A stretch of DNA of 64,000 nt from Schmidtea polychroa. Lineage: Eukaryota. Position numbers and translations under genes: made by a program. Position 1 is the stretch's first letter, and each line of letters opens with the position of its first letter. This document shows positions 1-54,747 of this stretch, one piece after another. The notes beneath the pieces were generated by a model, which saw nothing but the letters and a program-made list of their open reading frames with translations, searched no databases and was not told where the DNA came from. The DNA is taken from assembly GCA_044892525.1 (NCBI GenBank), contig CM097885.1:18292001-18356000 (forward strand), in the 5' to 3' direction.

Positions 1-316
1 AATCAACCATATCACAAGGTTGAAAAACTTCTTCAGGACATCTATGTTGATTTTTAAAAATATCAATTATAGCTTTTTTAGTTAATTTATTTTCAAATCC
101 ACATTTCAAAAGTTGTAATTCTGGTTGATTTATGGTTGTAGAATAAAAGATTAAATTATTATAATCTACAAACCTATCCTCAAGCAACATCCTCAAAAGA
201 AGTACATTCTTTCCACATCCAGAAGAACCAACAATTAATAATCTAAAATTATCAGGAAATACTTTATTATTAAATTTACTCTTATGTCTATTTAAAATTG
301 GTTTCCAAATATCCAT
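1..316 (-). CDS. A32/FtsK-like genome packaging ATPase, N-terminal 105 aa (runs off left edge; absent from ORF track)
   Basis: Manual translation from ATG at 316: MDIWKPILNRHKSKFNNKVFPDNFRLLIVGSSGCGKNVLLLRMLLEDRFVDYNNLIFYSTTINQPELQLL... Walker A-like GSSGCGK follows a hydrophobic strand, and the frame is open to the window edge. Confidence 0.88.
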   Translation of the reverse strand, partial: MDIWKPILNRHKSKFNNKVFPDNFRLLIVGSSGCGKNVLLLRMLLEDRFVDYNNLIFYSTTINQPELQLLKCGFENKLTKKAIIDIFKNQHRCPEEVFQPCDMVD

Positions 317-331
317 TTTGTTTATTATAAA

Positions 332-889
332 ATGACAACTGAAGAATCTTTAGAGCAATCCTTGCAAGAATTAATAAATTCAAATAAAAATAAATCGGTT
401 GTAATCAGCGGTAAGAAATATTTTATTGGAAAACATGTAAAAGAACAAGTTAAAGAACATATGAAGACTGGTGGAAAGGGTCACGAGGGGGGTTTTCTTC
501 CTTTAGCTGCTTTAATTCCAGCAATAATAGCTGGAATAACTGGTGCTACAGGAATAGCTACAGGAATAGCAAAAACTGTAAGCAATTCAAGAGATGCTAG
601 AAATAAAGAATTAGAAAAAGAAAAACTAGAAGCTGAAATCGAGAAAATAAAAGGTCAAAAGGGTCAAGGTCTCTATCTTAATCCTTATCAGGGGAGGGGT
701 CTCTATCTTGATCCTTATAAAGGTAGAGGTTTAAATGATTTTTTAAAAAATCAAATTTCTACATCTGAATCTTTATCATCAAAAGATAAAGATGATTTTA
801 AAAAAATATGTAAAGCTTTAAAGAATGGGTGTATTTGTAAAAATGCGCAGGGCCAGGGATTGTATTTAAGATCTTGGAAGGAACAATGA
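332..889 (+). CDS. Virion core protein similar to adenovirus pX (mu precursor)
   Basis: GGFLPLAALIPAIIAGITGATGIA resembles the pX C-terminal GGILPLLIPLIAAAIGA motif. Repeated GxGLYL motifs follow. Confidence 0.7.
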   Translation: MTTEESLEQSLQELINSNKNKSVVISGKKYFIGKHVKEQVKEHMKTGGKGHEGGFLPLAALIPAIIAGITGATGIATGIAKTVSNSRDARNKELEKEKLEAEIEKIKGQKGQGLYLNPYQGRGLYLDPYKGRGLNDFLKNQISTSESLSSKDKDDFKKICKALKNGCICKNAQGQGLYLRSWKEQ

Positions 890-922
890 TTCCCCAGCCC
901 CCTCCATTTTAATACCATTAAA

Positions 923-1795
923 ATGGTATATGAAGAAAGATTGTCTCTTTTAAAAAAATTACAATCAGAACAAGATAAATATAATAAAAAAGATATAACT
1001 CAACATGCTGAATCAATAATATTAAATGAGGTAATCCAACAACAACAGGAGCCAACAATTAAAGCTATAGAGGGACTTATCCCTCCTGAACATAAAGCTA
1101 TAGAAGCTCCTAAAAAGGAATTATTAAGATTAGTAGGAAAAAAACGTAGAAATAATATTGATTTAGAAGAAGATGAATTTCTTTCAAGATTAACACCTCA
1201 TAAGACTCCAATTAATTTTAAAATTAATACATCACTAGCTCCATCAATTATACCTATTATAGGTTATGATCTTAGAGGTTTTCAAACAATAACAATTAAT
1301 AATCAAAAATTTTATATATATTTAAATTCAGAAAATAATCCTGCGATTATTTCAATAAATACTTTTATGAATAGAGAGCGTGTTGACATTGAACTTTCAG
1401 ATGATTTTCATGGATTAATTTCTGGATATATTCCAGATGGTGTCAAGAATGAAGAAATTGATAAATATTTAAACTTAATAAAATTAATAAATGGTAGCCC
1501 TAAAGCAAAATATATTCAAGATTTAAAGAAATATAAAGATAGAGATAAAACAACCCCTCAAATTCAAATCATTGAAGATGATTCCTCAGATGTTGAACTA
1601 TCAGAGGGAGAAGGGTATAAGGAAGGAGAGGGATTTAGTAATAACCCTATAAATCTTTTTATTGAATTAAGAAAACTATTAGCTGCAAGGAAAGCAGGAC
1701 ATAATAATTTAGATTCTGATATTTTAAAGATTTCTAAAAAATTGTTAAAACAAGGAATAATTTCAAAAGATAAATTTAATAAGTATATAAAATGA
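923..1795 (+). CDS. Conserved Polinton structural/core protein
   Basis: C-terminal GEG-F..NPINLFIELRKLLAARKAGHNN...ISKKLLKQGII helical motif, which I recognise from Polinton ORFs; lies between pX and protease. Confidence 0.6.
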   Translation: MVYEERLSLLKKLQSEQDKYNKKDITQHAESIILNEVIQQQQEPTIKAIEGLIPPEHKAIEAPKKELLRLVGKKRRNNIDLEEDEFLSRLTPHKTPINFKINTSLAPSIIPIIGYDLRGFQTITINNQKFYIYLNSENNPAIISINTFMNRERVDIELSDDFHGLISGYIPDGVKNEEIDKYLNLIKLINGSPKAKYIQDLKKYKDRDKTTPQIQIIEDDSSDVELSEGEGYKEGEGFSNNPINLFIELRKLLAARKAGHNNLDSDILKISKKLLKQGIISKDKFNKYIK

Positions 1796-2267
1796 CTCCT
1801 TCAATATTAGATTTTTTAAAAACATTTGGAATAAATACAAAAACAAATTTTGATTTAAAAGATTATGCTAGAGATTTAAATTTAAAAATTAAAATATTAA
1901 TGAATGATGAATTATCAAGTCTGGAGAAAGAAACTCCAATGAATATAATAATCAATTATCAAAATTCAAATGAGAAAGGATCTCATTGGGTTTGTATATA
2001 TAAGGGGGGGGGGTAGGTGATTTAACTAGGGAGGGCACAAGGAAGAAATCTATATACTTTGATTCTTTTGGGATTAAACCTACTAAAGATGTTGAAGACT
2101 ATCTGTCGAAGGACTATACTTTTAATTCTTTACAAGTTCAACCTTGGAATACTAAAATATGTGGTATTTTAAGTTTATATGTTTTGTATAGATTGAATAA
2201 GGGAGAGGGAAAGGATTTTGAATCTATAATCAAAGAAATTTATAATGATTTAAAATCTCTATTATAA
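1792..2267 (+). pseudogene. Adenain-like cysteine maturation protease, frameshifted at G10 run (2004-2013)
   Basis: The first frame gives NYQNSNEKGSHWVCIY. The -1 frame continues IYFDSFGIKP...LQVQPWNTKICGILSLYVL to TAA at 2265-2267. Catalytic H, D, Q and C are all present. Confidence 0.9.
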
Positions 2268-2316
2268 TATTTTACTACTAAGTAATTTAATCCTATATGA
2301 ATTTACTACTAAAGAA

Positions 2317-3135
2317 ATGGAAGACAATTTAAAAAAAATGGCAAACATAATGTCAGATAAATATTCAAGAAGTTTATTAATAAATTCAAAAGAATCAAAC
2401 TTTACTATAAATTTTGAAGATTCAATAAATTTAGATCAAGATTTAAATTATGAATTAGGACTCTTGTGGTTTTCTTGTTTTAATACTATTTTTAATATAA
2501 ATAATAATAATAATAAATTTATTATAGTTAGGAGGGATAAGATATCCCAAGCCCATTCTTCAGTTATTCCCTATAGTATGTTGGAAAATAGTGAATATAA
2601 AAAGATTAAAAAATTTAATGAATACATCATTATAAAAATCGAACCAGGATCATATGAAATAGCAGATTTAGGAAAAGCAATTTTAAAAGAAACAAATGGA
2701 GAAGTAGAAATAAAAGCAGATATTCAAACCTCAAAATGTATTGCAACTTTAAAAAATGTTGGACTTGGTGTTACTAAATCCAGTTTCTTTCATACTATTT
2801 TAGGTTTTAAAGTCAGAGAATATAACACCAACACCTCACCTATTAAATCTAAAAATATTATACAATTAACAAATACAAATTGTATAAATATAGAGTGTGA
2901 TTGTATAATGGGATCATATAATAATGGTAAACATGCAAATATTTTATATTCCTTTCCTTCTAATACTGTGGGAGTTGGATTTAAAATAGTTGAAAGAATG
3001 AATCCCCCAAATTATTTACCTTTATGCAGAAAAAATATAATGGATATTAGTTTTAGAATTGTTGATGAAAACGAGAATTTAATTAGTTTTAATGGAGAAA
3101 AGATTTCAATGTGTTTACATTTGAAACAAGTTTAA
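2317..3135 (+). CDS. Minor capsid protein (penton, single jelly-roll)
   Basis: Intact 272-aa ORF with Polinton mCP-type motifs IEPGSYEI, INIECDCIMGSYNNG...ILYSF, PNYLPL, ISFRIVDENENLISFNGE...LHLK. Confidence 0.85.
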   Translation: MEDNLKKMANIMSDKYSRSLLINSKESNFTINFEDSINLDQDLNYELGLLWFSCFNTIFNINNNNNKFIIVRRDKISQAHSSVIPYSMLENSEYKKIKKFNEYIIIKIEPGSYEIADLGKAILKETNGEVEIKADIQTSKCIATLKNVGLGVTKSSFFHTILGFKVREYNTNTSPIKSKNIIQLTNTNCINIECDCIMGSYNNGKHANILYSFPSNTVGVGFKIVERMNPPNYLPLCRKNIMDISFRIVDENENLISFNGEKISMCLHLKQV

Positions 3136-3144
3136 TCTATAAAA

Positions 3145-3947
3145 ATGAATTATGCTAATTTTAATAAGTTTGGAATATATAATGTTGGATTAAAAGATGA
3201 AGATGTTATATCTCTTACTGAAAAGAGATATATTAATGAAAGAGGTGATTCAATGAAGGGTGATTTAAGTATGAATGGACACAAGATAAAAGAATTATCT
3301 CTTCCAACTGATAATCTTGATGCTACTAATAAAGAGTTCGTTGAAAAATATGTAGATAAAAAAATAATTGAAATTGAAAAAAAACATAATGAAGAAAGAC
3401 TTAAAGATAAACAAATTATGGATACTAAATTTAATACAATATATAATATAATAAATGAGTTGATTACATCATTTAATAAAAGAATTTCAAATTTAGAATC
3501 TCATGGAACACACATTAACACCACACACACTATTAGAAAAAGAGCTGCTGAATTAGAACAGAATAAAACATTATTAGCCGATACATATAAACATTTTATA
3601 GAACCAAGTTTAATAACAACAAACAGTAAAGAATGGAAAAAGAATAGTAAAGAATAGTAAAGAATAGTAAGCTTGAAAAGGGTGATGTTATAATGACTAG
3701 TTATGATTTACCACACGGAGATTGGTATGTTAATACTCATTCACATGGACTACATAAAGTTAAAAGTAAGAATATTATTTTTAAAAGCACACTTGTACAA
3801 TATATAGATTTAATATTTTATGAAAAAAAGGTTGATGTTGATGAAGTTCGTAAAGCATTGATGGAATTGTATAAAGATATTCTCTCAACAAGAGTTTCTT
3901 TTGATATCCGAGTATTGGTACCAGATAAAGTCTTGTTGAGGATATAG
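3145..3947 (+). pseudogene. Fibre/spike-like protein split by a 10-bp tandem triplication (ORF track 3145-3657 and 3693-3947)
   Basis: GDSMKGDLSMNGHKIKELSLPTDNLDATNKEFV resembles the trimeric tail-fibre/adhesin neck motif and is followed by a coiled coil. Removing two AGAATAGTAA units fuses the two ORFs in frame. Confidence 0.65.
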
Positions 3948-3992
3948 TTAAATTCTTAGTTTAATTATTTTTTTAAATTAATTATTATTAAA

Positions 3993-4594
3993 ATGGAAAG
4001 TGTGATGTCTGAAGTAAGAGAAAAAATTTACCCAGAATTATCAGGAGATGGATTCAAAGGTTCCAAGGCCTCAGCTCCTTCAGAACTTGAAGTTATGAGG
4101 GTAAAAGAATTTAAATCTGAAACCTTACATTTAAAAGATTTATTAAAGCATTATAAAAAAATTAAAAATCGATGGAATAAAGGAGATACAACTTTAAAAA
4201 TTATAGGTTTATCTTTAGGATTTACATCTGCAATCCTAACAATAATTCTTCCTTTAACACTTCCAGCCTTAAGTCTTGTTCCTGTTGTACTTGGAAGTAT
4301 TTCTGTTGCTGATGGATTCTTAACCGAGATAGTTTCAATCTCTTATACTTCAAAAAAGAAAAGTTTATATCGAGAAGTATGTCAATCCATAGAATTAGGA
4401 ATTTCAAAATTATATTTATTCCAATTGAAAGCTTTAGAAGAGGAATCCTGACAGATGAAGAAATAATGAAATCAAATCAAATAATTCAAGATATAAAGAA
4501 TGAGGTTATAAGATTAAAGACTGAGGGGAAAGGAAGTAAGAAATATATAACAAAGAAAGTTCAAAGAGAAAAATGGTTAAAAGACTATTATTAA
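3993..4594 (+). pseudogene. Membrane protein with hydrophobic hairpin (Polinton membrane-active type), 1-bp frameshift near 4441
   Basis: Hydrophobic segment IIGLSLGFTSAILTIILPLTLPALSLVPVVLGSISV. Adding one base gives KALE(D)GILTDEEIMK, joining the 4379-4594 frame. Confidence 0.6.
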
Positions 4595-4607
4595 ATCACC
4601 ATATAAA

Positions 4608-5246
4608 ATGGATGCCTTTTTGAAAAAAGTAGATCAGGTTGCAGTTGTTGATACTTCAAAATTAAACATGTTTTTATTAAAAGAAAAAGCTTTAGAGTTT
4701 ACAAAGATTTTAAGTGAGAATCCTAATTTTACTCAAGGAAAAATTTGTAAAATGTTAGGTACTTCAGATTCTACTATGAGAAGAATAAGAAATGATTTAG
4801 GAATGCCTTCACCTTTTAGACATGCTGTTAAAATAAAGAAAAAATCTAGAAAGGGAGAGAATACTACTAAGAATTTAATTACTAAGGATTTAATTACTAA
4901 GGATGAAGGGGGAGGGAAAGGGGCTGACGCAAGCAAATCTTTTTATTGTACAGATTGTTCAAAAGTTTTTAAATCTAGTAAATCTTCACAAAATCATGTT
5001 TGCACAGGGAAACCAAAAGACAGTTTAGCAGCTGGAGGGGCTTTTAGTATCTTTAATAAGAATTCTGGAAAGTCAACTAATGATAAGTTCAATTCTGGGA
5101 GCTTCGCGACCTCTGGGAAGTCAACTAATGAGGAAGAATCTGATTCTGATTCTGGGAGCTTCGCGACCTCTGGGAAGACAACTAAGTTCAATTCTGAGGA
5201 AAGAAGTAAAAAACAATTAAATGAAATTCTAGGAGTCAAATTTTGA
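4608..5246 (+). CDS. HTH plus zinc-finger protein, putative viral regulator
   Basis: HTH-like FTQGKICKMLGTSDSTMRRIRNDLG; zinc finger FYCTDCSKVFKSSKSSQNHVC; low-complexity repeats. Confidence 0.6.
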   Translation: MDAFLKKVDQVAVVDTSKLNMFLLKEKALEFTKILSENPNFTQGKICKMLGTSDSTMRRIRNDLGMPSPFRHAVKIKKKSRKGENTTKNLITKDLITKDEGGGKGADASKSFYCTDCSKVFKSSKSSQNHVCTGKPKDSLAAGGAFSIFNKNSGKSTNDKFNSGSFATSGKSTNEEESDSDSGSFATSGKTTKFNSEERSKKQLNEILGVKF

Positions 5247-5254
5247 ATTATAAA

Positions 5255-5554
5255 ATGGATTACAACTCAGTCGTTAAATTAATTAATGAAGAACCTGAAA
5301 TGAAAAATGAATGTGTAAAACTTTTGACAGAATTTAATAAACAAAGTATGGGAACCCAAATTGATTATGCTCGACAAACACTTGTTTATCGTGTAGGACA
5401 AGAAGAAATAATGAAGAGATTAATGAATAGAACTGTTGATCTTCATATTGAAAATGAGGGATTAAAGAAAGAGAAAGAATATTTATTTGAAAGTGCTAAT
5501 TTAGTTGATAAAAGTTATATAGAATCTATGCATGAAAAACATAATTTTAAATGA
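5255..5554 (+). CDS. Hypothetical viral coiled-coil protein
   Basis: ATG in TATAAAATG context like the neighbouring genes; 99 aa. Confidence 0.5.
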   Translation: MDYNSVVKLINEEPEMKNECVKLLTEFNKQSMGTQIDYARQTLVYRVGQEEIMKRLMNRTVDLHIENEGLKKEKEYLFESANLVDKSYIESMHEKHNFK

Positions 5555-5556
5555 TT

Positions 5557-5790
5557 CTAATTCTGAGCGGAATAAGGTAATAATGAAGGAAATTGAGGAA
5601 TTATTACATAGACCAATACCAAGGATATTATGATTAATATAAAAAGTGAAATAATAAAAAGTATTATATTTTTAAGTCTAGAAAGTTTTAAGTAATAATC
5701 TTTAATTATTTCATGGATAACACCATGTAATTGTTTACCTTTTTCTACAAGTTCTTCAGCTTTTGAACATCTTAAATTAATCACCGACAT
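5557..5790 (-). CDS. Small single-pass membrane protein
   Basis: TATAAAATG start; transmembrane stretch IILFIISLFILIIISLVLVYVII. Confidence 0.5.
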   Translation of the reverse strand: MSVINLRCSKAEELVEKGKQLHGVIHEIIKDYYLKLSRLKNIILFIISLFILIIISLVLVYVIIPQFPSLLPYSAQN

Positions 5791-5990
5791 TTTATAAGAA
5801 TTTAATTCTTGCTTGTTCTAAATTCAGTCATGATTGAAAGTCACTTCTTATAGTATTAAATCCTTAGTAATTAAATCCTTAGAAAATGAATGCAAGCAGT
5901 TTCAAAGAAGAGATTGGTGATATAGACCTAGGAGATGCATCTCCAGTGGACATTCCTTCAGACCTTCCAATATAATTATTTTTAAAATAA

Positions 5991-6436
5991 ATGACTACTC
6001 ATTTTGACAATCCAGAACTTTTACTTTTGCGTGGTATTGATACTCCTCTTTCTAATCTTGCAACATATTTAAAACACACACAAGAAACTTATGAGAAGAA
6101 AACAATAGAAGAAAAAGAAAAATATGGTAAAGATTCAATAGTTGATTATTATAAACTATTGTATTCTGCTTGGTGTTATCGATCACTTCTAACACCTGAA
6201 AAAATATTAGAGGCAGAGGCAAGTGCAGAAGAGGGTAAAAAGTATTTAGATGAGTGGGGAAAAATAGATTTAGATGCTGCTATCACACGCCTCAGGGGGA
6301 GGGCTTCTTTGACGACACTTCGGATGGTCTCTCGAATGACTCTGGTTATAATTCTCTCTCGGAAGACCTCTCAGGAGAATATTCTAATTCTGATAGACTT
6401 TTAGATGGCCTTTCGGATCTTTCAGAAGAGGAGTAA
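5991..6436 (+). CDS. Hypothetical viral protein, probably frameshifted near 6295-6300 into an acidic tail
   Basis: TAAATG start. The overlapping frame 6254-6436 gives an acidic, more protein-like end (GEGFFDDTSDGLSND...EEE). Confidence 0.4.
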
Positions 6437-9400
6437 TCCTACTTAACTGACTTTTATTATAATTAAATTCTTCAGGAGTTAAATTTTTGATATATTCTTC
6501 TTCAATATTGAAACATTTTTCCATGATAGAGATTGTGTTTTTAATTTGACAATATAGAGGTTTATTATCAAGATAATCAAATTGTGGAGCCTCTTCGGGA
6601 TAGGCGATCTCAACTCTATAAATATCAAGATCGGTAATTTTTAAATTATAAAGTTTATTTATTTTATCAAGATTTTTTATTATAGGGATTAAATCATTTC
6701 CAATTGGGAGAGTTGTTTTCATATCACTTAGAATAAATCTTTTATCATCATAATTTGATAATGATATCTTTGATGATTGTTGTAAATACATATTATGCTT
6801 CTCTGATCTAAGTTGATGAACCTCTTCCATTTTATCTTGATGACCTTTTAGACAATTTTTATAATCTTGATGAGTGATATTCTTAGATACTGCTCTTTGT
6901 ATCCCTTTACATTTGTTTTCCTTAGTAATTAAATTCTTAGTGATCTTACTATTTGTTATTATTGGTTGATCAAATGTATAATCTATTTCTTTAGTTTCTT
7001 TAGTTATTGGATCCTTATACTTAATTTTAATTGTTTTCTTTTCTGTTTTTGGTTTTTCCATCTCTTCAAGAGAATATTGTTTAGGTCTAATAAATACTGC
7101 ATCTGATATTATCTTATTTGGTTTTTCATCTTTGAAGGCATATAAATCTCCAGATGGGTTTATTAGTTTTGAAAGTATGGGATCTTCAGAGATTTCTTTT
7201 TTCACATCTTCTCCATCTACTTTTAAAAAGAAACTATCTGTATCCATTGCACAGAGATGAGCTCGATCTTTAAAATGAGGAGAAATAATATCATAATAAG
7301 CTTTATACATTTGTAATTTAGAAAGCTCTAAGATTGTAAAACCCATAGAGATTGGTTTATTATAAGTTTTTTCATTATTTTTTATTTCAATTGCAATTAG
7401 GTTCTTTGAAAATACTTCACCATTTTTAAATGTGGGTTTTCCAAGCATTCGATTATATCTTGCAAAGTCTTTTTGAGTATTTGTTAGAAGCTCTATTCTT
7501 GTGTACTTATCCACATTTTCCATAGTCTTGCCAAAGACTGCATTATTTAAAAGTTTATAAATCACATCAAGATAATTATTTCCAAGTTTTTTTGCTTCTT
7601 TTCTTTTCATGATATTTTCCTCAATAAAGTCTTTCATAAATGGTGATTGTTTGAATTTTATAATATTATGAATCTTCTTCAAACGAAGACCATATGAAAG
7701 ATAAAATTGAAGTAAGAGATAATGACAAAGATAATATTCTCTATTGGTTTGATCACATAAAAGTTTTATATATGCTGTTATAAGTTTTAAGATTTGCCAA
7801 TCTGAAAGTTCACTGAGATCTATCATTCTTTTTTCAGGAGCAAGTGGAAGAAACCTGGTTGAAGATTTTATTCTATCTGGATACTCGAGATCACATTCTA
7901 TAGCATAACCATAATCTGAATCTCTGGGGGTTAATAGTATTTTTTTATAAGAGCATTTAGTTTATTAACATCATTCGGGATTTCAACCCAGGAATAGTCG
8001 CCGATTGGTAAATAATGTTCCATTACACCTCCATATAGAGCGTTTGCATCAACATAAAGTATTTCAGATGGATTGGTTAAGCCCTCCATTATTAATTTAG
8101 AGTCTTCTGGAGTTTCTATTTTAATATAGTTCTTACCAGAATCAGTATCTTTGAAATATTTTCTAATAACAGTTATTGAATTATTTGTACTTATTTCTCT
8201 ATCCCCCATTACAGAAGAAATACCCCCTCTAATATTTTGTTTAAATAGATTAAACATGTCAGCATCTTTTATTAATTCTATTTTTTTATTCTTATCAGAA
8301 TCCCCAGAAGTCCATTTATTATATAACATTATATCCCAAGCTAGAGCTGGCAGTGTTATATAATTATATGGTTTTAATTCAAAGGTATTACAAAAGATTT
8401 CAAAACAATCGGTTAGGATATAAACATCCAGGGATAAATACATGTCGGCATAATCTCCTAAAGTTTTACATCCAAATAAATCCCACATTTTATTTGCTCT
8501 AGCATATTCTTGATCTGTAATATTTATCTTTCATTATATCTTTCAAATGAATTCATGTAATCATATGGATATACTCCTTTTGCTAGGCATGTAGAATATT
8601 CTTCTAAAGGGATATTATTTTTTTCCAAAACCATCTCTATTGTATATTTAAAATCCTCAGGATTCATGTTTTTAGCTATTGAATCCAGAGGCATTTGTAG
8701 GAAGTTTAGAGAATCTAAAAATTTTAAACATCCATATTGTACACATTTATATTTTTCCTTTGTAAGTCCAATAACCTTGAAAGAGTTTTTAGCATTTACA
8801 GCTAAAGCTTTTATAAATAAATGTAAATCATATCCAAAAAGATTATGAAATGTAACAGGTATAAATTTAGGAGTGTGACAATTAAGGTTGCAATTATTAT
8901 GAGCAGCTCCTCTATAATTATTTTCCTTTTTAAAATGATCATGATCAGGAACTTTAGGAGTCTTGGATACAAGAGGATCGTCAAATTTCTGTTTGCACAT
9001 CCAACAATGTGTAGTATTTTTATATTCTTCAAATTGTTCATCTGAGAAATTTAATTTATGGTCTGTTTTTAATACCATAAATAATTTATGTTCTAGGTGA
9101 TTTGTATCATCAACAAAATGGTTTAGGGTGTCTTCTTGAGAGATTCCTCTATATGAATATTCTTTAGATTCTATGAGTTCAGGATAATTACTTTTAAAAA
9201 ATAGTTTATAAGCTGTTGGTATTTGTTTAGCAGTTCTTATTGTATAAGATTTTTTATTTTCCCATAGAAAGTTTTTCATAATCAACCATTTGGGAATCTG
9301 CGTAGTCATTCCTTTTAAATACTCTTCAAAAGGATCTACTAAATTATGTTTTTCTATTATTTTAAAATATTCTTTTTCTAAATCATATTCTACATTTATT

Positions 9401-11001
9401 GCTTCAAAATCTCCTATTATTTCCCCCAATGATTTTAATAAATTTGAATGATTTTTAAAATGCATGTCTATCTTTGTAGGCATTTTAATTAAAGAAGGTT
9501 TATTCTTCTCACATAATCTTTCATGTTTAATTGTAGCATTTTTTGTTGTGGAATAATGTAAACATCTTTTACAAGTTGTTCCACCTCTAGCTAAATTTCT
9601 TGAACGCATAAGACTTTGAAAGTTTTTTATTAAAATATAATGTTGATTCCTTTCTAATTCTGGTAGGTCCTTCTCTTCTATGCCCTGGCCCTCTCCCTCT
9701 TCTTCTTCTGAGTTCCCAGAGGTCGCGAAGCTCCCAGAAATGAAGTTCCCAAATTCTTCCTCCGATTCCTCCTCTGCTTGAAGATTTAATTCTTGACATG
9801 ATTCATCATCATCAGAATTATATGGATAACCATTATTAACATCTCTATAATCAACTTTATTAAATTGCTCTATTATTAAAAGATATATTTCTCTATTTTT
9901 ATCTTCTACAGATAATTCTCTATTTGAAATATAAATTGGAATAATATGTTTTCTAAAATCTTCCTTAGATGGAGCATATTCATAAATATTAAGTTTAAGA
10001 TTATTTAATTCTTCAAATTTTGGAATATATTCAATTTTCATCGGGTGTTCAAATCCTTCTGGATATATTAATTCATTTTCATATTGTTCATATTTTTTAA
10101 CTCTTTGAGCATTCCTTGCTTGTGGATGTAAGTGAGCAAGTATTACCCATTGAAAACATTTATTATCAGCATTCTTTATATTTATAACATAACTCGAGTC
10201 GAATGGTGTTATGATATAAGATTTTGGATTTGGAGGTGCTGCTCTCCAATATTCAATTTCTATAGATTGGAAAGAATGAAATCTTAAATTTGATTCTCCC
10301 AATTCTTGTTCTATTTGTTCTTGTTGTTCTCCCATCTCTTTGCATAAATCATTGATGGTTTTATTTATTCCTTATGTTGAGAATAAATATTTAAAAATTG
10401 ATTCAACAATGGAATCTAAAGGGGATGTGTTCGCTCCTTCTCCTCTCCAATATTTTGTGGCGATTCTAACTTTATATTTTATAATGTTGAATCTTGATTG
10501 AGTAAAAATTCTTATAGCATTGTCCATTGAACTTTTTATGTTCTGTTTATTTGCTCTTATATATTCTGAGATTGTGGAGGAAAACATTTGTTCTCCAAAT
10601 ACATCTATATGATTGAAGTTATCCCAATTATATTTTTCCTTTTCAATATGTTCGGGCTCAACATCAGAATCCTCAGAATCAGAATCTCTTTTAGGTATTG
10701 GTTGTTTGTTTTTTATAGCACATGATTTTACATGTTTTAAATAATAAGATTTTATATTAAATTTTAATTTACATATGAAGCATTCAAATTTTTCTCTATT
10801 TTTAGGAACTCCAATACAACTTGAAAAATGTTTATCATATCCTGAATGTAAATATCTCACTTTACATTTAGTACAGATTTTAGAGTTTGAATTATTAAGT
10901 CTATTTGTTTTTAATAAACGTGCTTTTGATTTTTGATGAGATAGTAGAGCTGTTCTGTTTTTAAAAGTTTTTTGACAAACCTCACAACTATAATCATTCA
11001 T
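6384..11001 (-). pseudogene. polB: Protein-primed family B DNA polymerase polyprotein (Zn fingers, terminal-protein region, vOTU, exonuclease with EndoVII insert, polymerase); three lesions
   Basis: ExoI GDFEA, ExoII FHNLFGYD, KGVYPYDY, motif A YVDANALYG, motif B KLLNNAVFGKTMEN, motif C MDTDS. Lesions: in-frame TAA at 10372-10374, frameshift/deletion near 8524, missing base in the T7 run at 7940-7946. Confidence 0.95.
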
Positions 11002-11131
11002 TTTTTTAAAAAAAATTTTTATTGGATACTCTGTTTTTAAATTTTTAATTTTTTATATATTTATTAATTCAGAATGCCAAACTGGCAGCTTATATTTGCC
11101 AAGACGGCGACATGCCAGCACAATAATGATA

Positions 11132-11484
11132 AGTAGTGGACATAAGACCCACACGCACGAAACCTTTCCTGGAGATGTGGGATTTCCATTTCTTCTCCTT
11201 TTTTCTTTATATTTATAGGGTTTAAGGTTGGAAAAGTAAGGGTATTTGTTTTTGAAATAAAGGTAAAAAAGGATTAAAAATGAAAGGAATTATTGTCTTT
11301 TTACTATAAAATATAGGGATTGGTGAACACTTTTCCAGAGGGAAAGTAGGGGTATATGTTTTCAAAATAAAGGTAAAAAAGGATTAAAAATGAAAGGAAT
11401 TGAGGTCTTTTTACTATAAAATATAGGGATTGGTGAACACTTTTCCAGAGGGGGTGAGGGCGTGTGGGTCTTATGTCCACTACT
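11132..11484. repeat. Terminal module: 25-bp perfect inverted repeat enclosing a 110-bp tandem duplication
   Basis: AGTAGTGGACATAAGACCCACACGC (11132-11156) and its exact reverse complement (11460-11484). Direct repeats at about 11231-11342 and 11341-11452. Confidence 0.9.

Positions 11485-17723: not shown

Positions 17724-54747
<37,024 letters not shown>

Follow-up and report, generated by a model that had tools for sequence, protein, structure and literature searches.

How very small dispersed repeats, such as the GC clusters of yeast mitochondria, cyanobacterial small dispersed repeats and Rickettsia palindromic elements, move without an enzyme is an old open question. Rickettsia palindromic elements are bacterial sequences of about 100-150 nucleotides (nt) with a long palindrome, while the cyanobacterial repeats (Elhai et al. 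2008) are reportedly 21-27 nt long, lie in some cases in frame within genes and have no known enzyme. The yeast unit GC42 comprises 42 nt with a long palindromic stem and fixed AG or ACT repeats and is found between genes or in introns (PMC4478555). On the biophysical side, GNA loops alone form a mini-hairpin among the 64 GCNNNGC fragments; the most stable member, GCGAAGC, has a melting temperature of 76.5 C and is resistant to 3' exonuclease, and such mini-hairpins are known at phage origins and at the N4 promoter (PMC13037366). In DNA repair, two base pairs are enough for polymerase theta (Pol theta) to extend a 3' end, and the enzyme makes templated insertions whose source is adjacent or, sometimes, distant sequence (PMC11292364). 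Here, we analysed a stretch of 64,000 nt of the Schmidtea polychroa genome (contig CM097885.1, positions 18,292,001 to 18,356,000; hereafter the window), which contains the right-hand part of an adintovirus-like Polinton, and describe an 18-nt module that recurs in unrelated genes of this element. Comparison of the sister copies of the Polinton suggests that the module was probably dispersed by homology-guided copying during Polinton replication and filtered by reading frame.

An 18-nt module at filled and empty sites

As the initial annotation had reported, the 27-mer TTCTGGGAGCTTCGCGACCTCTGGGAA occurs exactly three times in the window, twice in a gene with a helix-turn-helix-like (HTH) N-terminus and once in the protein-primed family B polymerase gene (PolB; positions and strands in Table 1). 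No further match was found in the window with up to three mismatches allowed, and 100 shuffles gave an expectation of 0.00. The layout described there was found as well: two TCTGGGA repeats enclose 11 nt, which amounts to an 18-nt module with 7-nt direct repeats on either side, and the opposite strand carries GCGAAGC, a GC-GNA-GC sequence, at all three copies. Each copy is read in frame as SGSFATSG, within the open reading frame (ORF) 4608-5246 (+) or the N-terminal PolB ORF 8524-10335 (-). The two HTH-gene copies lie 57 nt apart inside a local 37-nt duplication that is 97% identical, and they therefore probably represent one dispersal event and one local duplication. The "empty site" proposed at 5063 turned out to be a neighbouring paralogous unit with a one-base difference (TCTGGAA) and not an orthologous empty allele. 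An automated test with 14-nt flanks across copies returned no empty allele for the three window sites; the closest orthologous-looking empty junction is found in the sister copy L011, with 15 nt matching on the left and 6 nt on the right, and the empty alleles found for the window's own sites (L011, L002) are partial ones only.

An assembly or sequencing artefact is hardly credible. A contig of the public run X1 spans 5097-5223 with zero differences, the genome holds 362 matches to the looser module pattern versus 0 for a control pattern, and the module displays site-specific decayed variants and a tree-structured presence. What would speak for an artefact is the PolB copy, which is reached from both sides by contig pieces of runs X2 and X3 and is bridged by none of the pieces listed; the three runs X1-X3 possibly include the very sample that was assembled.

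The search for further copies in the genome, as proposed in the initial annotation, was productive. In 781 Mb, the 20-nt core occurs 9 times, GRGAGCTTCGCGAC 26 times and the looser pattern GGRGCTTCGCRACC 362 times, while the reversed controls gave 0 occurrences in each case. All six loci of the 20-nt core outside the window are Polinton copies, and 23 of the 26 GRGAGCTTCGCGAC matches fall within the window or another Polinton locus examined, with the other three within 0.1-3.7 kb of an HTH-gene match. Polinton genes were present at 20/20 sampled GGRGCTTCGCRACC loci (drawn from the first 100 listed of the 362), where the module mostly sits at the start of the orthologue of ORF 2317. Overall, 0 of the 46 matches checked (26 + 20) fell outside Polintons. 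In addition, 100 of 150 HTH-gene matches were examined as 10-kb stretches, plus 40 left halves; the indel, census and tree counts exclude L007 (host flank) and two loci with inverted duplications, L002 and L030, and two matches in conserved PolB (L032, L077) and one loose match (L077) were set aside as false positives. Viral contigs gave 0 matches to the module pattern and 0 PolB relatives. A metagenome scan with the module pattern returned 74 matches with a median GC content of 0.66, all of at least 45% GC and none with Polinton genes; they were treated as chance matches.

Across the sister copies, the module family occupies ten non-homologous sites, nine of them in a total of six genes and one intergenic (L002). 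It is inserted directly after the ATG of the ATPase gene (L124, L136), of ORF 2317 (many copies) and of ORF 3993 (L057), and in antisense orientation in ORF 923 (L048, L050) and ORF 3993 (L023); two sites in the HTH gene and two PolB loops complete the list. At the three ATG sites, filled and empty alleles differ by exactly +18 nt with GGA duplicated. In flank searches, the number of empty matches was 40 at ORF 3993, 7 at the ATPase and 31 at the antisense site in ORF 923, and the window copy itself is empty at three of the ten sites. This filled/empty polymorphism at non-homologous sites bears out the proposal of a tiny frame-preserving copied sequence, and the module shows presence/absence polymorphism without fixation at the protein level, so the outcome named in the initial annotation as a refutation was not observed.

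The module is read as ELR(N/D)L, ASRP or SFAT, with all three sense frames in use. The statement that it is always in sense orientation and always encodes SGSFATSG holds for the three window copies; family-wide it fails, because three sense frames and two antisense sites are used, next to one intergenic site. Selection for SGSFATSG as a linear peptide motif, to which the common frame of 3/3 window copies would point, thus appears largely refuted by frame switching and is very improbable: given this use of frames and sites, it is the nucleotides that are shared and not the peptide, and the loops that hold the module vary in length between 56 and 296 nt, those of distant homologues being short.

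The flanking duplications measure 3-4 nt at the ATG sites, 5 nt in one PolB loop, 6-7 nt in L002, L003 and the window, and 10 nt in L001 and L004, with merely 0-2 nt in several HTH-loop copies; the 7-bp duplication initially described is not a general feature, as lengths vary from 3 to 10 nt across sites. Such variability fits microhomology better than a transposase. A non-autonomous micro-transposon, moved by cut-and-paste through a hairpin-recognising enzyme acting in trans (the Polinton integrase or an endonuclease-VII-like zinc domain of PolB), is accordingly an explanation that we consider unlikely. It would account for the constant unit of 18 nt, the same GCTT start and the GGA or GAGA targets at all clean sites; in addition, sister copies encode an rve integrase, and distant homologues of the N-terminal part of PolB contain PF02945, presumably Endonuclease_7, a cutter of branched DNA. 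However, the module is not a miniature inverted-repeat transposable element: it has no terminal inverted repeats and no target-site duplication of fixed length, its ends are direct repeats without terminal pairing in folds, shared tracts run past the unit, the 3' half of the unit adopts the local target sequence, and hairpin-free modules disperse likewise (see below).

Donor and recipient share homology past the 18-nt unit. The insertion in ORF 3993 equals the ORF-2317 start of another copy across 30 nt, flanks included, which makes that start the likely donor, and 36 of 39 bases are common to the HTH-gene and PolB tracts. Module variants differ almost wholly through CpG transitions; two different decayed forms (L048, L050) share the ORF-923 site, so this site was probably filled by an intact module. 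A +9-nt form in L011 looks like a partial loss by slippage. The ORF-2317 site is filled in 35 and empty in 48 of 83 copies, a sample enriched for filled ones, and trees of these copies were built from the DNA on either side of it. The downstream tree requires at least 13 changes, 11 of them forced by well-supported branches, and the upstream tree 15 changes, of which 8 are forced.

Mini-hairpins and a wider pool of modules

The module is not unique; it is one of many modules of 12-30 nt that are shuffled among tolerant loops. Among copies, the zinc loop of PolB measures between 56 and 296 nt and the acidic loop between 56 and 290 nt, nearly always in frame, and both are assembled from pieces of 4-6 codons that are also present in the HTH tail. 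Distant protein homologues have short zinc loops of 18-43 amino acids; one distant PolB homologue from another source, P0030, carries a repeat expansion (ATREATREAT) in the same loop. A second module, of ITKDL type and without hairpin, is found in the HTH gene and twice on the opposite strand (Table 1), where the occurrence inside PolB is a 15-nt gain against L012. Private modules are scattered through the single copies L003, L011 and L055. Exact dispersed repeats within one copy number 2.6 on average (97 copies, median 1) versus 0.59 in Markov controls, and 6, 0, 0, 0 and 3 in five host stretches. We also found 543 of 107,600 13-mers at three or more sites, a count made without a shuffle control and taken as a lead only.

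When near copies are compared, a length divisible by three is seen for 528 of 624 indels of 12-60 nt in coding DNA versus 69 of 110 in "non-coding" DNA, part of which may code in other copies. The 620 indels of 12-30 nt comprise 57 tandem and 563 non-tandem cases, and a distant template of at least 16 nt in the same copy was identified for 12 of the latter, compared to 1 and 0 in the reversed and native controls. Ectopic copying is real, yet it is demonstrated for a minority of indels only.

An alternative source of such insertions is host break repair, in which end joining of the Pol theta type would place templated insertions in Polinton DNA and stem-loop extension would generate short hairpins. 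The known 3'-end extension and templated insertion behaviour of the enzyme (PMC11292364) is consistent with this route, as are the microhomology at the junctions and a slight enrichment of short stems in general among the indels. It nevertheless seems rather improbable: none of the 26 + 20 matches checked lies outside Polintons, donors are kilobases distant or in other copies, and the in-frame bias is strong, which places the events in lineages under selection. Those objections would still leave room for an action of Pol theta on Polinton DNA in its free form.

The suggested mini-hairpin lead held in so far as C-GNA-G is strongly over-represented in the indels of the family. Of 857 indels, 102 contain a C-GNA-G stem, where dinucleotide shuffles gave 13.9 +/- 3.6 and native segments 95 of 8570, and counting by site bins gave 26/83 versus 10.8. 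CpG-matched loops were not enriched (12 versus 10.9; 6 versus 8.9), and the number of hairpins per CpG is 0.42 for indels as opposed to 0.029 for the conserved coding parts and 0.030 for host DNA. Among C-NNN-G sequences with a complementary outer pair, the four GNA loops are the most frequent by unique context and rank 1, 2, 3 and 5 of 32 loop classes at site level. The loop order by unique context (GAA>GGA>GCA>GTA) agreed with the published order of stability, but the site level gave GGA, GAA, GCA, (CCC/GGG), GTA, and the exact loop order is therefore not claimed. The outer bases are paired at 204 of 442 CGNAG sites versus 118.9 expected, with all four pair types represented, while control cores showed a 1.09-1.15-fold excess and host DNA 50 versus 47.8. 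This covariation indirectly supports folding in single-stranded DNA, as far as sequence can indicate it. The nearest-neighbour fold of the 18-nt unit lies at -1.0 to -1.6 kcal/mol, in a model that does not select the mini-hairpin. The idea that hairpin-free modules are CpG-decayed hairpins was dropped, being inseparable from a general 1.5-2.2-fold excess of short stems.

Hairpins could also be a position-free cis-feature under selection that shields displaced strands or marks sites of priming or packaging. At least one C-GNA-G stem is found in 88 of 89 copies (median 6), the outer pair covaries, and mini-hairpins do occur at phage origins and at the N4 promoter (PMC13037366). On the other hand, the module family is missing from 51 of the 89 copies in the part examined, conserved coding parts show a background hairpin level per CpG, filled sites decay by CpG transitions (L048, L050), and a few stems per 10 kb are expected by chance; we give this explanation little credence. 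A cis-signal required for replication or packaging, the second proposal of the initial annotation, is unlikely because the module family is absent from so many copies and its position is free.

A proposed copying mechanism

Variable duplications, homology beyond the unit, confinement to Polintons and the frame filter are better accounted for by microhomology-based copying while the free element replicates than by chromosomal repair or a transposase. It is established that protein-primed polymerases displace entire strands. In the homology-guided copying that we favour, strand displacement would leave long single strands that serve as donors and recipients. A nascent 3' end in a short sequence X (GGA, TCTGGGA or AAAATGGA) would anneal to a donor of the form X-M-X, in which M is flanked by X on both sides, in the same or a co-replicating genome; M-X would be copied and the strand would return, so that X becomes X-M-X. 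Annealing of a short single-stranded fragment could replace this microhomology-guided template switching. As the converted site would itself be a new donor, the structure would be self-propagating. Selection on active genomes would then retain insertions whose length is divisible by three, in tolerant loops and immediately downstream of start codons. Slippage would locally add further tandem copies or remove part of a module, as in the +9-nt form of L011, and the hairpin would subsequently be eroded by CpG transitions. An element-encoded enzyme would be unnecessary.

If homology-guided copying is accepted, we lean slightly towards the hairpin as a causal booster of it. The corresponding step, the weakest of the model and one that we would narrowly favour given the preceding ones, is that the hairpin, which can fold in single strands alone, stalls synthesis or shields short fragments from 3' exonucleases. 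To our knowledge, the GNA mini-hairpin is the smallest stable DNA fold. A bolder reading, which we regard as possible and put forward tentatively, is that the module represents 18 nt of protein-free selfish DNA in which the GNA mini-hairpin itself is the determinant of mobility in strand-displacing viral replication. Polinton proteins would then acquire longer loops and N-termini by drawing on a pool of modules that carry the hairpin as a tag and are exchanged among genes and genomes.

Several observations weigh against the copying model and the role of the hairpin in it. The model is built from sequence comparison, and most non-tandem indels have no identified donor: a template of at least 16 nt in any copy was found for just 72 of 563, with 15 in reversed and 38 in native controls. 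The upstream and downstream trees of the ORF-2317 site conflict, so recombination may underlie much of the turnover there, and ordinary recombination could explain single-site changes. The widely dispersed modules TTCTGAGGATTCAA and the ITKDL module of the window carry no hairpin. In the held-out left part, the hairpin excess replicated only weakly (7/124 versus 2.9 +/- 1.7, shuffle maximum 9), and indel events are non-independent, with a few successful families dominating the counts. Hairpins showed no preference for junctions (19/29 versus 20.1 expected), and of the frame and strand biases for which a check had been proposed, the former is evident from the coding indels and the latter was absent from the hairpin class (110 sense versus 105 antisense). 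Other short stems are also enriched in indels, by 1.5-2.2-fold. Finally, the outer pair is A-T or T-A in many of the counted stems; PMC13037366 gives no stability data for such pairs and describes terminal G-C pairs as essential.

The family offers a setting in which a single genome holds hundreds of diverged copies of the same replicon, with filled, empty, donor and decay states side by side. It indicates a concrete, testable rule (X + X-M-X -> X-M-X), the inserts being enriched in a defined biophysical motif, and a route by which viral proteins acquire low-complexity loops, namely sequence borrowed from unrelated genes. It also suggests an in vivo consequence for a mini-hairpin known mainly from chemistry and a few phage origins.

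The host element and comparison with known systems

The Polinton of the window (Table 1) comprises an A32-type ATPase gene cut at the left edge, a PX-like ORF, several unknown ORFs, a 212-amino-acid HTH-like/zinc-finger ORF, PolB in three pieces, a zinc-finger ORF and the right end (...ACTACT). Its left part (integrase, capsid) is absent, and similarity ends about 90 nt upstream of the window. The 212-amino-acid protein has no Pfam HTH match; its HTH-like label comes from reading the sequence. The reading frame of PolB breaks near 8520 and at 7830-7930. The sister copy L131 has matches to rve and PLA2, to a double jelly-roll and to an A32 ATPase, so that the hallmarks of a Polinton are distributed over the window (PolB, ATPase, right end) and L131 (integrase, capsid). 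In L131:6464-7891, the integrase is fused with a parvovirus-type PLA2-like domain in the fashion of adintoviruses.

Table 1 Features of the module and its host element in the window
Feature	Position	Strand	Details
Module copy 1, HTH/zinc-finger gene	5093..5119	+	18-nt unit 5101-5118; TCTGGGA repeats 5094-5100 and 5112-5118; SGSFATSG
Module copy 2, HTH gene	5150..5176	+	part of 37-nt local duplication of copy 1
Module copy 3, expandable acidic loop of PolB	9713..9739	-	exact 27-mer, in frame
39-nt tract, 36/39 bases common to 5085-5123	9709..9747	-	shared patch exceeds 27-mer
GCGAAGC mini-hairpin sequence	5101..5107	-	template strand of HTH gene
GCGAAGC mini-hairpin sequence	5158..5164	-	
GCGAAGC mini-hairpin sequence	9725..9731	+	template strand of PolB
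Unfilled paralogous repeat unit	5063..5083	+	one base off target (TCTGGAA)
Second module, 15 nt, ITKDL type, HTH gene	4867..4904	+	hairpin-free; also 5855-5891 (-) and 6921-6932 (-)
Empty ATGGA site, start of 272-amino-acid ORF (ORF 2317)	2317..2325	+	filled in 35/83 copies scored
Empty ATGGA site, packaging ATPase start	308..316	-	filled in L124, L136
Empty site in 290-amino-acid ORF	1431..1437	-	filled antisense in L048, L050
Right-hand part of adintovirus-like Polinton	1..11484		right terminus ...ACTACT at 11484
212-amino-acid gene, HTH-like N-terminus and C2H2-like finger	4608..5246	+	C-terminal third is hypervariable module loop
Protein-primed family B polymerase gene	6384..10335	-	PF03175, E 4.5e-9; ORFs 8524-10335, 7931-8488, 6384-7826

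The GC content of the window is about 0.29, and the observed/expected ratio of CpG is 0.41 in Polinton copies versus 0.92 in host DNA. An inverted internal copy (11132-11156) of the right terminal 25 nt (AGTAGT...; 11460-11484) is located about 300 nt inwards from the end and surrounds a tandem pair of 110 nt. The short palindrome TCAGTCATGACTGA and its variants occupy a conserved spot (5830-5840) between convergent gene blocks in many copies, and near 6430 this palindrome is duplicated in some of them. Rearrangements were seen in several sister copies: L002 (G000:C1:70634500-70644499) and L030 carry large inverted duplications, in L002 with PolB on both strands and a very long frame, and in L008 and L009 the ATPase sequence (window 1-151) recurs about 6 kb downstream of the HTH gene, indicating rearranged or tandem elements. 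L128, the left half of L003, has an integrase ORF with a C-terminal half of divergent and truncated appearance, in a copy that is very rich in the TACGCAGT module. Outside the Polinton, the window contains a tandem array of about six or seven units of 147 nt (18648-19590) and a region with overlapping open frames on both strands, very low GC content and strong skew (52497-53298), probably a simple repeat.

Compared to described systems, the host element resembles an adintovirus-type Polinton/Maverick in its protein-primed PolB, rve integrase with PLA2-like domain, double jelly-roll capsid, A32 ATPase and AGT-type end. The module differs in length, stem and location from GC clusters, Rickettsia palindromic elements and small dispersed repeats. 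In the literature searched, which included few subscription papers, we found no description of internal module shuffling in Polintons. Similar to Rickettsia palindromic elements, the module is inserted in frame at tolerant positions of unrelated protein genes (six here); unlike them, it has about one sixth of their length and is used in any frame and on either strand. With the cyanobacterial repeats it shares short dispersed units that lie partly in frame in genes, but those belong to bacterial chromosomes and the module to a Polinton.

The yeast GC clusters are close in that both are short GC-rich units in AT-rich DNA with short direct repeats at the flanks, presence/absence polymorphism, rapid gain and loss, and merging and shuffling of units (PMC4478555). 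Unlike GC42, the module is 18 nt long, has only a 2-bp mini-hairpin where a long stem (30-45 nt) would be expected, is flanked by variable repeats, and belongs to a virus-like element of the nuclear genome, on chromosome-scale contigs, where most insertions are within genes and keep the frame. Of the d(GCGNAGC) mini-hairpins, it bears the most stable member, GCGAAGC; PMC13037366 describes these hairpins at origins and promoters and not as dispersed insertions, and the word "mobile" occurs 0 times in it. Finally, the module resembles Pol theta insertions as short templated inserts with junction microhomology (PMC11292364). Such insertions, however, usually derive from break-adjacent templates, are not self-propagating and are expected genome-wide, whereas the modules are confined to Polintons in the matches checked.

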